Assembly (NCBI GenBank): GCA_964252035.1
Contig: OZ176202.1
DNA from: Podarcis erhardii
Taxonomy: Eukaryota
Direction: 5' to 3' (one strand)
Length of the DNA stretch: 64,000 bases
Positions 4,418 through 58,602 of the stretch are shown in pieces. Position 1 is the stretch's first letter; the number at the start of each line of letters is the position of its first letter. The translations under genes were made by a program, and so were the position numbers. The notes under the pieces were generated by a model that was given only the letters and a program-made list of their open reading frames with translations, was not told the DNA's origin and made no database searches.

Positions 4418-7400
4418 GTGCACCTGTATGCCCTCAATTCATATGTGTGTATGTTCATTAATACAGGAGGTTTTCCATCACATCCCAGAACAAGGCTATT
4501 TAGAGACAAAACATTGGTGGGGGGGGGCCTCTCTTGTGCCAGTGGCATCTCTTTGGCTCCAATGGGGGGGGGGGGAGGACATCCCCTTCAATTAATGCAA
4601 TCTGACCAGAGAAGATAATACATGGCAGTGTGTGCCTTGCCCTTGAAAATCTGAGAAGGCCTTCAGTTCTGAAGAGAAATCTCTGCTCTTCTTGACATAA
4701 CACAGCATTTCCAAGACATTTATTATTCATCTTGCTGGAATAAGTGCCTCAAAGGCAGAAGTGATATTAAGACCCTCCAAAACAGGTCCTTTGTCTCCTT
4801 ATTAGCCAGGAAGATTAATTGTCTCACAAATTTTCAAGATATCAATAGCAATTATAAGAACACCATTTCGAATCTGTCATATTTTGCCACAAGATGCAAG
4901 TGAGCTGCAAATCAGTATGACATGCAAAGCAGGTTTATGGTCTGATATCAAAGTAATGATCCATTTATAAGTTTACTGGTTAAATTGTAAAAATAACAAC
5001 ACAGATCCTTTTGAGGTCTAATGCACTAGGTACTAAAAGAGAGCTTTAAGAAGGGAATGGGCTATCACATATGATCAAATATAGCTGCATTGTAACATCT
5101 TAGTAATGACTCACATGAATGAAAATGCTGTTTTTGTTGACTCCTCTGCTACTGTTAGTCATAGAAATGAAACTTTTCCTCACCCTCAACACTTCATTGC
5201 TTGTCTCTTCTCCAATACTAATGGCAGCTTTACACACTAACTGCTGTGGGAAACAGGCGTTTCTCCAGAGACATATTATTATGCTGGATTAAGTGGTGTC
5301 ACACACAATTACGTGGACCCATCTCTTTAAAAGAAATATGTGAGAAATCTGAACCTTATTCAGAAGTTTCCCACTTTTAGCCCCATCTCCATCACCATGA
5401 GGCTCATCCCGTTTGCCCAGGTGGTCTGGTGTAACTTCTGCTGTGAGGAGAAAGTTTTTTCTAAATATAAGAGGGTCTCCATATATACTGGAAAATTCCA
5501 GTAATGTCTGGGGGTGGGTGGGGGCTAACTTGGCACCGAGGGGGGGGGGTTAAATTTAATGGTAACGCTCAACAACTTTTTGAGCAACTGTGTCCAGATT
5601 TGTACTTCTTGAAAGATGACAACCCTAAAATATGATTCCTGAGATCAAGCAGCAGATTTCTGTCTATGTTTGGACACCATTTTGAATCAAGTAGGAAGAC
5701 TTTCGTAACTGCACTGATTTCAATCCCTGATTTTAAAATTGCACTGATTTTGTTTTTGTTTCTTACACGCCCCAAGCAATGCTACATACGAGGCTGCTAT
5801 TGTTTAACAAAATACATATCTTACCATGGATGTGACTGCAGAACAGTTGCAACTGAAAATCGTTTTCATCAACATCTCTTTCTCTTTCTCTCAGTGAATG
5901 GAAAGGAAGCAGTGTGGTGGCTTTTTGGATTCATGTGGACCCATTTAGAGGCATGTGCAGTAAAGGCGAGATGCCTTTGCCCTCTACTCACATATTTTAT
6001 TAAGAGAACATGACTGGGGTGGGGGCTGAAACCTGCAGAACAGCAGCTTAAATCAACAGGGTATTTAATAAGACATCTCCATAACGCTATCCAAAAGACA
6101 AAATAGGGGCAAGGATTTACCAGGGGCAGGGGGAGGAAAATAGGGTCTGTCCCTGATAAATAGAAGCAGTGCAACTGCATGGAGATATACAGTATTTTAG
6201 TCACGTGGAGCCCAAGAAAATGTTTCAACAGAGGTTTCCCTCTTGCCTATCCATCTGAAATAACCTTCTTCAACCCGGTGCCCTCCAGATGTTTTGACTA
6301 CAACTCCCATCAGCCATTGGTCAGAGGTTGATGACTCTTGCTTTCAGGTGCTCCTTGAAGATTTTTTTTTTTTAATGTCACCAGGCGTATGCAGTTATTT
6401 AAAAATTTATTGAGTCATTTAATGATTGTTCTGTATTGCTTTTAAAGGCTTTTTAAAATCTTGCTGTACTCCCCCCATCTGATGTTTCGCGAGAGGACAG
6501 TATATCGTTTTATAAATAAATATATAAGTTGCAGTCCAACAGCAACTGGAGGAGACAGAGGGTGGGGAGAGGTTGATCTAAAAGATATAGCACTACAGAA
6601 ATGTACAACCGTACTCTCAATGAAGGCATGAGTGCATACAGATGTACATTCAAAGAATTTCTAACCAGGACACAGGCAAAATACAGCATACACTTGACAT
6701 TTGTAGAGCACGTCCAAATGTTCAAAGCACTTCACATTATTGCAACACTTTACAATAGTCCTTTAAGCCAAGTCAATATTATCTCCCATATTGCAGAATG
6801 GGGGGAGGGGGTTTAAAAGCACAAATTTCCCGCCAGACAAAGGAAAAAAGAGGGGGGAGCCGAACAAATACAAAGCATGTTTTGCTCCTTGTCTACACCC
6901 TGCATTAGCAGCTGCTTCTGGATATGAGTAAGTAGATCTGGAGACCAGGGTGGAAGGAAATAGCTTAAAACAGAGTGCAGCAAGGCAAGGCAATTAGAGG
7001 TTTCACTCCCGTCCCCCACATGCTCTGGTTTGACCCCAAAACAAAATATGCTCCAAGGCTCAAACCTGTTGAATTCTACCTCCAATGAACGTGGTTCCAT
7101 TTATGTCTCATTTGGCAGTCCACTGTACTATGTGTTCGTTTATTACAGTTATCTTTATCCTGCCTTTACAACACGAAAACCCTTCTAAGACAGCTTACAA
7201 GTAACCAAAAATAAATAAAATAAATGACAATAACCATATTAAAATATAAAAGTTCAGTTCTATGCCCTTCCCACAAGACAAATGGTGGTAGATGACTTGA
7301 GCTGCCGGGGGGGGGGGGGAGCGGCTGGAGAGGAAAAGTCCAGGTGGAGCAGCCTCTTTGAGGTGGTGTTCACTACTCAAGTGGTTAAATGGAAGAAGAG

Positions 7401-44240: not shown

Positions 44241-44818
44241 TGTCAGGAACTGGAGTCAGGCCTATGTTAGCAATAAAATAATAAAGTGCTCGATTCTAGT
44301 GAAGTTAATTCTTTATTCAAAGAAATAAAACAGCTCAGTTCTGGTGGTCACAGCAACACTTCCCAGTCTTGCTCTGATGAAGCAGTTGCTGAAAGTCCCC
44401 ACCTTCCCACCACTCTCTTAGGCTCCACCCCTGGTTCCTTCTCCAACAGACTAAGGCTCGGTCATCTTGTCTCTCTTTGCTCTGCCCTCTTCATTTCTCT
44501 GCATGTTCAGGGAGAGAGGGGAGCTGGTCAAAGCAGGAGGGAGAGACTCTCTGGATTCTTTAGCAGCCTGTCTCATCTCTGTAACCCCCCTCCTCACCTG
44601 CCCCTGAGTTTGGACTGCTCTCTGCCACATCCTCTTCTTGCTCACTAAACCCTGTTGTGTCTTTCAGCACCACCTCCTCCCAGTCTGCCCCCTCTTCTAC
44701 TCTGACCACTCATCGTCATCCCACCACCAATTCCCTGGCTCTGAGCCTTCTTTTCCTGGGGGTTCCCTTGGGGGCTGCTGTCTCCCACTACTCCTGTGCA
44801 TTCAGCCAGTCTATGACA
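44241..44818 (-). mobile_element. Solo LTR, family A (Gypsy-like)
   Basis: TG..CA termini, near-TSD ggcac / agcac, AATAAA near the 3' end; homologous to 57279-57876. Confidence 0.8.
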
Positions 44819-57278: not shown

Positions 57279-57876
57279 TGACAATGACTGGCTGGATGCA
57301 GAAGAGTGGTGGGAAGCACCAGCTGGGGAACGCTCAAGGGAAGAAGGCTCAGAGTCAGGGAATTGGTGGTGGGATGACAATAAGCGGTCAGAGGGAGAAG
57401 AGGGGGCAGACTGGGAGGAGTAGGTGTTGGAAGCTGAAGAGGCAACAGGGTTTAATGAGCAGGAAGAGCCTGTGACAGAGAGCAGTGCAGGCTCAAAAAC
57501 AGAAGAGGAGGCTGGAGAGGAGAGGGCCCAAGAGGTAGAGATGAGGCAGGCTGCTGAAGAATCTAGGGAGTCTCCCCCTCCTGCTGTGACCAGCTCCCCT
57601 CCATGCTGGTCTCCCAGAACACACAGAGGTATGAAGAGAGTAGAGCAAAGAGATACAAGGTGACAGAGCCTTAGGCTGCTAGGGGAGGAACTGGGAAACG
57701 AGCCTTAGAGAGCGGTGAGAAGGCAGGGACCTTTAGTCCTCACAACTGCCTTATTGGGGCAAGACCTACCAGGAAGAATTGCTGTGATCACTAGGCCTGT
57801 GCTGTTTTGGTTTCTTTGAATAAAGAGTTAACTTCACAGACACAGGTGTTTTTTTATTGCTGACCTACTCCTGACA
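57279..57876 (+). mobile_element. Solo LTR, family A (Gypsy-like)
   Basis: Homologous to 44241-44818; AATAAA at about 57819; ends cctgaca. No clear TSD. Confidence 0.75.
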
Positions 57877-57955
57877 ATTCATGGCTCAGAGAGTTGCTGG
57901 CAAATGACCATAGGCTCAAAGCAGCTCAACTGACAAAGGAGCAAACTATGAAGGC

Positions 57956-58530
57956 TGTGATGGCCTGGGATTCCGATTCAGAGGCTGAACCAGAGGAATC
58001 CCAGCCTGCACAGGAGTCCCCGCCTCAGGGGGGGCGGCTGAACTGGGGCAGGGCCTTGATTCTGAAGCGCCTGCACCTGTGCCGGATCCTCAGGAGCAGG
58101 CACCAGGTGATTCCACTCTGGCTCCAGAGGTGGTTGAGGACTCAGTGCCTGCAGGTGAGTCTCCCCCTGGGCCCAGTAACCCTTCAGCCTCTCCTGAACT
58201 GCAGAGGCTCAGGGCAGAGAGGTGAAGGGAACTGGTTTCTCCCAGGAGGAGTGCTCGCCTTAAGGCCAGGAGAGGCGGGTCTCCTGGGGGCCAGGACCAC
58301 CCCTGGCCTCAGAGAAGATAAAGGCCAGTCAGCCCGGTCCCAGGTTGCGGGAGCAACGTCGATGAAGAGCTGTTTCGGCCAGCATCCAGTCCTGTTCCTC
58401 CAGTGTTCCTGTCCCCGCCCGGCTTCCTGCTTCGGACCTCGCCCCGCTCCTTCGGAACTCTTTCCAGGCTATTGACCCAGGACCGGACTTTGACTACGCC
58501 AATGGTAACCTTCCCCCCGGGACCAGCACA
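57956..58530 (+). mobile_element. Solo LTR, family B (575 bp)
   Basis: TGTG...CACA termini, exact 5-bp TSD aaggc, TATA-like agataaagg, relatively CpG-rich (young). Confidence 0.9.
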
Positions 58531-58602
58531 AAGGCACTGAATTGCACCATCTTCTATCTTGAACCAAGAGACACTGTGTTGTATAAGGAGATTTATTTTA
58601 AG

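Follow-up and report, generated by a model that had tools for sequence, protein, structure and literature searches.

HIV nef and MMTV sag are accessory genes that overlap the U3 of the 3' LTR, and both are made as separate proteins from RNAs of their own. Among retrotransposons, the accessible part of one study describes plant CRM elements of group A as having coding sequence that runs into the 3' LTR and a CR motif in the place of the chromodomain (PMC3059260). The Tf1/sushi group, according to the accessible part of a second source, has the self-priming arrangement as a group feature, along with the Ty3/gypsy gene order, a chromodomain behind a GPY/F-SH3 module, no env and 5-bp target-site duplications (PMC6317226). 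Arginine anchors that bind the nucleosome acidic patch are described for foamy virus Gag, KSHV LANA and CMV IE1, and loss of chromatin binding by PFV Gag redistributes integration sites (PMC9040877, in part). The vertebrate HMGN consensus is RRSARLSA, and the Dot5 motif RRSARIAT, in which three arginines are essential, binds the acidic patch (PMC13347269, in part). Here, we describe squamate chromoviruses whose integrase carries a real, LTR-coded tail with a candidate nucleosome anchor. The arrangement is apparently undescribed: in the literature searched, which leaves most subscription papers and repeat-database notes outside, we found no description of an HMGN-like motif or an LTR-coded tail in vertebrate chromoviruses, nor of an HMGN-type motif on any retrotransposon integrase.

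The window, a 64,000-nucleotide stretch of Podarcis erhardii DNA (contig OZ176202.1), contains a solo LTR on the plus strand at 57956..58530. This LTR is 575 nt long, starts with TGT and ends with CA (TG..CA ends), and the 5-bp target-site duplication AAGGC borders it on either side (57951..57955 and 58531..58535, both on the plus strand). A search of the lizard's own genome with the LTR gave 2631 first-look candidates, from which 40 were scored and 30 loci fetched; the 29 loci besides the window serve as the sibling set. The siblings are mostly 573 nt long and 97-98% identical to the window LTR, a perfect 5-bp duplication is found at 26 of them, and two full-length elements (L086 and L094) are flanked by the same LTR. 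The window copy, a solo LTR in decay, comes from a Ty3/gypsy chromovirus of the Tf1/sushi type that is young and abundant. All comparisons were made between natural copies; a genome-wide consensus was not their basis. Two pairs of loci (L002/L005 and L004/L006, contig C19) have flanks that are 99% identical and represent recent segmental duplications or assembly duplicates; contig C19 is also rich in old LTR elements.

The original prediction proposed a hidden frame in the U3, and the landmarks on which it was built are all present: an ATG at 57960, a G run near 58028-58034, an in-frame TGA at 58223-58225, an RRSARL motif at 58244..58261 (+) that resembles the HMGN consensus (PMC13347269, in part), and a stop codon at 58319-58321 within GATAAA (58317-58322). 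The frame had been joined by correcting one frameshift and the TGA. At the level of the family no such repair is needed, as 25 of the 29 siblings carry a natural, unbroken frame of 119 codons from the same ATG. Three of the remaining siblings stop early, at the codon where the window copy also does, and one is frame-shifted. RRSARL is found in 21 of the 25 open siblings, and in 19 of the 23 distinct open copies that remain without the two segmental-duplicate pairs. In the window itself, the first break exists as a 2-nt length difference plus three substitutions relative to sibling L003 (58027-58034), so the residues that the prediction had written across it differ from those of the siblings. 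We read 57960..58321 (+), with breaks at 58027-58034 and 58223-58225, as the remnant of an LTR-coded integrase C-terminal tail made up of an acidic, proline-rich linker, a short basic helix and the motif, a candidate arginine anchor. The window copy of this tail has no product.

An open frame is by itself weak evidence, because 4.9% of 5000 dinucleotide shuffles of a natural U3 (63% GC) contained an open 119-codon frame at that position. The motif is rare. The pattern RRSxR[LI], which the family displays with arginines at positions 1, 2 and 5, arose in any of the three frames in 0.24% of the shuffles, and RRSAR[LI] in none of the 5000.

Full-length copies were recognised by a common sequence behind the LTR; purine-run and TGG patterns had been tried as finders and were dropped, as they returned mostly chance flanks. 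The 11 full-length elements fetched (L089 in partial view) are ~5.6 kb long, with 5-bp duplications and a G-rich polypurine tract, and their LTR pairs are 93-100% identical where the whole repeat was aligned. L091 encodes one polyprotein of 1557 residues, in which Pfam identifies capsid, zinc knuckle, protease, RT, RNase H, integrase, a Tf2-type SH3 and a chromodomain, which gives the gag-PR-RT-RH-IN order of Ty3/gypsy chromoviruses between the LTRs. The chromodomain (PF00385) lies at the integrase C-terminus with E-values of 8.6e-15 in L091 and 1.3e-13 in L094, a member of the window's own subfamily, and its three aromatic cage positions translate as Y, W and Y. There is no env, and one long frame takes up the whole element as far as the 3' LTR. 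The 150 matches scored for the chromodomain region all show 100% protein identity, which points to a young and abundant family, and the nearest database matches are Tf2-like polyproteins of lizards, frogs and fish.

Directly behind the 5' LTR of L094, 10 nt are complementary to the LTR bases that match 58347-58356 of the window. This self-primer pairing forms 10 bp in the minimum-energy structure and 9 bp in the centroid, although the stability of the fold as a whole is unremarkable (z +1.38). A primer site complementary to the RNA 5' end, not to a tRNA, is a feature of the Tf1/sushi group, whose gene order, position of the chromodomain, lack of env and 5-bp duplications the family shares (PMC6317226, in part). 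The assignment was made from these features and the self-primer. As in CRM group A, coding sequence enters the 3' LTR. Unlike CRM elements, which are centromeric and primed by tRNA-Met, the lizard family retains a canonical chromodomain with the LTR-coded part behind it, has a self-primer instead of a tRNA-Met primer site, and has young copies spread over many contigs.

The relation of the U3 frame to pol is seen directly in the full-length copies. One uninterrupted frame leads from gag to the stop codon in the 3' LTR in 5 of the 11 elements, and chromodomain and U3 frame are continuous in 8 of them, L094 among these. Because the gag-pol frame runs on through the chromodomain and the polypurine tract into the U3 of the 3' LTR, adding 110-129 residues, we identify the U3 frame with high confidence as the C-terminal tail of the integrase. 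In the other three elements a one-base slip in the G run before the polypurine tract puts the tail out of frame. The top matches to the Chromo profile include 148 in retroelements, of which 93 lie in frames of at least 1590 codons, where the tail was inferred and was verified in the loci fetched; 10 lie in frames of 1507-1525 codons, all of them fetched and all without the tail, and 42 lie in shorter, broken frames. The tail-less copies have +1 and -1 slips, with G runs both longer and shorter, and are interleaved with intact copies in a tree of 25 elements (short branches, weak support). Given this interleaving, no tail-less lineage is evident, and assembly errors in the G run are possible. 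The G run itself (L091 ~5155-5170 and equivalents) varies by one base among young copies, which switches the tail on or off, and it could be a ribosomal slip site or an assembly artefact.

The best named relative, a Podarcis muralis polyprotein in UniRef that is 97% identical over the region, includes the tail without comment. Three other Podarcis database proteins (P0128, P0288 and P0280) are gene models that take the U3 ATG as their start and join the tail by splicing to gag or a receptor gene; these are probably annotation artefacts and possibly cases of exonisation.

The frame had been likened to nef and sag as a stand-alone accessory protein. What the two share is the overlap with the U3 of the 3' LTR; the lizard frame is fused to pol as the continuation of gag-pol and integrase, and its ATG lies in the att end. 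The accompanying proposal that the frame can be translated from the 3' LTR is supported. Thousands of squamate solo LTRs appear to hold a hidden acidic ORF, and an LTR-coded integrase tail accounts for this.

The promoter layout bears on how the tail could be expressed. A TATA-like GATAAA at 58317..58322 (+) overlaps the stop codon of the frame, lies ~30 nt before the inferred transcription start, and is kept in 15 of the 15 subfamily copies listed. Since the self-primer site begins 30 nt behind GATAAA, the U3 would span ~57956-58346 (57956..58346, +), with the inferred 5' end of the element RNA and start of R, the complement of the primer site, at 58347..58356 (+). The remaining, non-coding R-U5 (58347..58530, +, likewise inferred) has many out-of-phase indels between subfamilies. 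As the frame lies wholly in U3, it could not be transcribed from the own promoter of a solo LTR or of the 5' LTR, and only the 3' end of the genomic RNA would carry it.

RNA from a related organism (three raw runs and one contig set) was compared with L091:590-5570 at 90% likeness. Two stranded bulk runs gave a sense depth of 1-5 over much of the inside of the element. Both strands of the U3 had coverage, and some reads ran into it from the host flanks (21 and 15 with loose ends at the LTR start). In the three raw runs of the related organism, at this inside depth of 1-5, no joint from the 5' part of the element into the U3 was seen; the only RNA joints were repeats within U5 and the natural continuity from U3 to R. 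One contig, from a run only guessed to be RNA, covers the chromodomain, the tract and 64 nt of the U3. These data have a weak bearing, either way, on a subgenomic RNA.

These observations bear on the idea that the U3 encodes a separate small acidic protein that acts on chromatin in trans. Its translation would begin at the U3 ATG, on a spliced or internally started RNA or through host read-through of solo LTRs, or the element protease would release it from the integrase. The ATG has a G at both -3 and +4, the LTR candidates number in the thousands (the 2631 from the first look), and host-flank reads do enter the U3 on both strands; a Met is also found at this place in Anolis. However, the ATG falls within the att end, the second lacertid family (L159-L162) and the vipers have no Met there, the frame lies wholly before the inferred transcription start, and the three RNA runs, at their depth of 1-5, contained no joint from the element's 5' part into the U3. 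In the window's subfamily, omega is 1.35 among the 23 distinct open copies, almost all of which are solo LTRs, so solo copies decay freely. We consider a separate protein quite improbable and return to the frame as the end of the integrase.

Selection on this integrase tail is uneven along its length. The subfamilies share 72-88% nucleotide identity, and their tails comprise 110, 116, 119, 126, 127 or 129 residues. Relative to L003, the indels before the motif measure 6, 6, 15, 18, 21 and 30 nt, and past the motif there is a single insertion of 1 nt, two codons short of the stop. Downstream of the stop, the gap length is divisible by three in 11 of 51 cases; in this comparison the ends of three LTRs were mis-called. 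As the 16 copies used had been picked for open frames, only the subfamily-wide 18- and 30-nt indels count as unbiased; both are in frame. In a GY codon model with kappa, applied to 16 natural copies and four regions, the tail as a whole had an omega of 0.95. By region, the estimate was 1.2 in codons 1-28, 1.1 in the linker and 0.48 in helix plus motif (codons 73-105; 2dL 6.8, p ~0.009 before correction for four regions). All of these values are pushed towards 1, because 60% of the tree length is terminal decay. The original prediction had named a dN/dS of about 1 as the sign of a compositional by-product; this describes the tail as a whole, whereas the helix and motif block departs from it, and purifying selection on the motif region is supported.

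Two signals of selection were set aside. A codon model that lacks transition bias put the omega of the motif block at 0.39 and made the first 28 codons, too, look selected; since the N-terminal signal was gone once kappa was included, we rely on the GY values alone. For the last 11 codons omega is 3.3, which we read as promoter overlap rather than as positive selection.

The RRSA codons hold one silent change in 16 copies. With silent sites nearly fixed, some of the conservation within this genome could be due to a DNA element close to the promoter, and this touches a further explanation, by which pol lost its stop, the GC-rich U3 merely stays open, and the tail is functionless read-through whose conserved block is a promoter element. 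Such an account would be at ease with the share of shuffles that remain open, the near-neutral omega of the whole tail and the barely varying silent sites of the motif, as well as with the ten young tail-less copies and with fish and frog relatives that read a few codons into the LTR. It is at odds with the in-frame subfamily indels, with the low omega of helix and motif, and with Anolis, where the same residues stand behind an unrelated linker. The tail-less copies, too, result from slips in both directions next to intact copies and form no clade of their own, albeit in a weakly supported tree. Functionless read-through appears improbable on this evidence, and we continue with a tail that functions as part of the integrase.

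What the tail may do is suggested by its motif. The RRSARL core and the arginine positions essential in Dot5 are common to the tail and to HMGN, Dsup and Dot5. The tail differs from HMGN proteins in that its motif is located at the integrase C-terminus, fused to pol, and in that positions 7-8 read KA, not SA. In Pfam the 119-aa tail matched no family, the HMGN profile included, and a PDB search with the tail gave 4 matches (E 0.66-2.6), of low complexity and none meaningful. We modelled residues 72-112 of a natural tail with the H2A and H2B cores of the same genome, alongside three controls. The complex reached a median score of 0.70 against 0.01 for the best control, with one of three runs at 0.02; at least 10% of contacts are common to the runs, and the partner pLDDT is 42 or higher. 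In calibration, 51 of 78 solved pairs attained the score mark, compared with 2 of 108 mismatched ones; in a eukaryote set the figures were 39 of 65 and 2 of 126. Peptides fall outside this calibration. In the model, Arg5 of the motif contacts H2A E61, Ser3 contacts H2A E61/E64 and Arg1 contacts H2B Q47, and a matching contact mode is seen in the solved Dsup complex (PMC12487698, in part). Because such complexes are already solved, the pass indicates likeness, not binding, and may be a memory of HMGN, Dsup or LANA structures. The model agrees with the acidic-patch role first proposed for the motif, which would dock on the H2A/H2B acidic patch.

The comparison with other lineages shows which parts of the tail recur. 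Among 95 chromodomain-bearing relatives, the motif lies in a real tail in four (Podarcis P0002, Anolis P0009 and P0010, and the frog Leptobrachium P0019); a fifth match is a fused gene model. The two Anolis proteins end in RRSARIAAK, nearly identical to the Dot5 motif RRSARIAT, after an acidic tail of 120 residues that cannot be aligned with that of Podarcis, and a second Anolis family (P0270) keeps RRSARIAAK behind a different linker and helix. The Leptobrachium protein ends in RRSPRLQAR. Among 106 single-chromodomain representatives (148 minus 42 multi-chromodomain proteins), P0247 ends in RRSARLAAAH and Podarcis P0128 has the motif, and four other flagged matches are at unrelated places. 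Both searches used a motif-bearing query and may favour motif-bearing matches. The amphisbaenian Rhineura (P0144) and the snakes Vipera (P0182) and Crotalus (P0203) have the chromodomain, the tract-coded residues, the acidic linker and the basic helix but other basic ends, and Naja and Salvator fragments contain the acidic start; the LTR borders in these species were inferred from the translated tract. Tails are short in most of the relatives listed from fish, frogs and fungi, and many of the fish and frog elements read only a few codons into the LTR. The lizard elements differ in the 110-129 residues that the LTR adds and in the HMGN-like end.

Five fish proteins (P0006, P0082, P0089, P0098 and P0099) extend ~20 codons past the tract and share a REPSP[F/Y/V]-type end after PRRRGRPRRR; short read-through of this kind may be the ancestral state.

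Basic tails are commonly nuclear localisation signals, and RRxS is also a plain kinase site. Yeast Ty1, for one, has an NLS at the C-terminus of its integrase, which counts in favour of reading the lizard tail as an NLS or a non-specific DNA-binding basic helix with an incidental likeness to HMGN. All squamate tails seen have in common the acidic linker and basic helix rather than the exact motif, the Rhineura, Vipera, Crotalus and L159-L162 tails end otherwise, and the block under selection takes in the helix before the motif. Against this, RRSAR[LI], absent from the shuffles, is found again and again exactly where the tail ends, in Podarcis, in two families of Anolis and in P0247; a classical NLS requires neither Ser-Ala nor Leu/Ile, and the model puts the motif on the acidic patch. 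We judge the NLS or DNA-binding reading unlikely. A role in chromatin or targeting, among those originally proposed, is the likeliest.

By a slight balance of probability, we favour a tail that is the end of the integrase and that, next to the chromodomain, would use the acidic patch to tether the enzyme to nucleosomes. The tail would be made from genomic RNA as part of the integrase. Its acidic, proline-rich linker may act as a flexible tether whose sequence and length evolve freely while the frame is kept, and RRSARL would serve as an arginine anchor of the HMGN/Dsup/Dot5 type that docks on H2A/H2B. The integrase would then possess two chromatin readers, a type I chromodomain with a methyl-lysine cage and the acidic-patch anchor, which could together keep the integration complex attached to nucleosomes and may skew the choice of sites. 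HMGN binding is reported to be sensitive to phosphorylation, and the serines of SPRRS could make binding by the tail similarly sensitive. In foamy virus it is Gag that bears the anchor, and LANA and IE1 are proteins of DNA viruses, whereas here the candidate anchor is on the integrase of an env-less retrotransposon, beside a chromodomain. If true, this adds a retrotransposon integrase to the HMGN-motif proteins and to the acidic-patch binders of mobile elements.

A wider proposal is plausible but falls just short of what we would call probable. Squamate chromoviruses would carry a U3-coded, fast-evolving targeting arm, on which several lineages (the lacertid, Anolis and frog families and P0247) have a true HMGN-type anchor that reads the acidic patch together with a histone mark, gated by mitotic phosphorylation. 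Such an arm would be convergent with foamy virus Gag and LANA and a vertebrate counterpart of the CRM design in plants, and families that reside in one genome with different tail ends would divide chromatin niches among them. Site choice of vertebrate chromoviruses is essentially untested; the motif, the structural prediction and at least 150 near-identical young copies in a single genome make the question tractable.

A second very young chromovirus family (L159-L162) has LTR pairs that are 99-100% identical and, in many copies, a pol of 1376 codons with a chromodomain that lacks two of the cage aromatics. An acidic stretch precedes its tract and is followed by ~97 codons inside a 392-nt LTR, which end in a basic helix with no RRSARL.

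An older LTR family of the same design is present in the window at 57286-57875 (+) and 44255-44811 (-), with a TGTCATG-like start, an acidic frame and a decayed, RRSLRL-like end. Its copies are ~80% alike (4736 first-look candidates). No parent pol gene was found for it, as none of 4 pattern matches had a chromodomain upstream. Of 30 loci, 16 still show a legible SLRL; the copy at 57286 has it in the frame of the N-terminal part, with two stops between.

Several young elements lie inside or beside other LTR elements (L087 5575-8925, L088 5599-8943, L089, L093 and the flanks of L086/L094), and a preference for insertion into other retroelements is possible. The frame behind L088 ends in a RTRRPPAYLEDY-type integrase motif.
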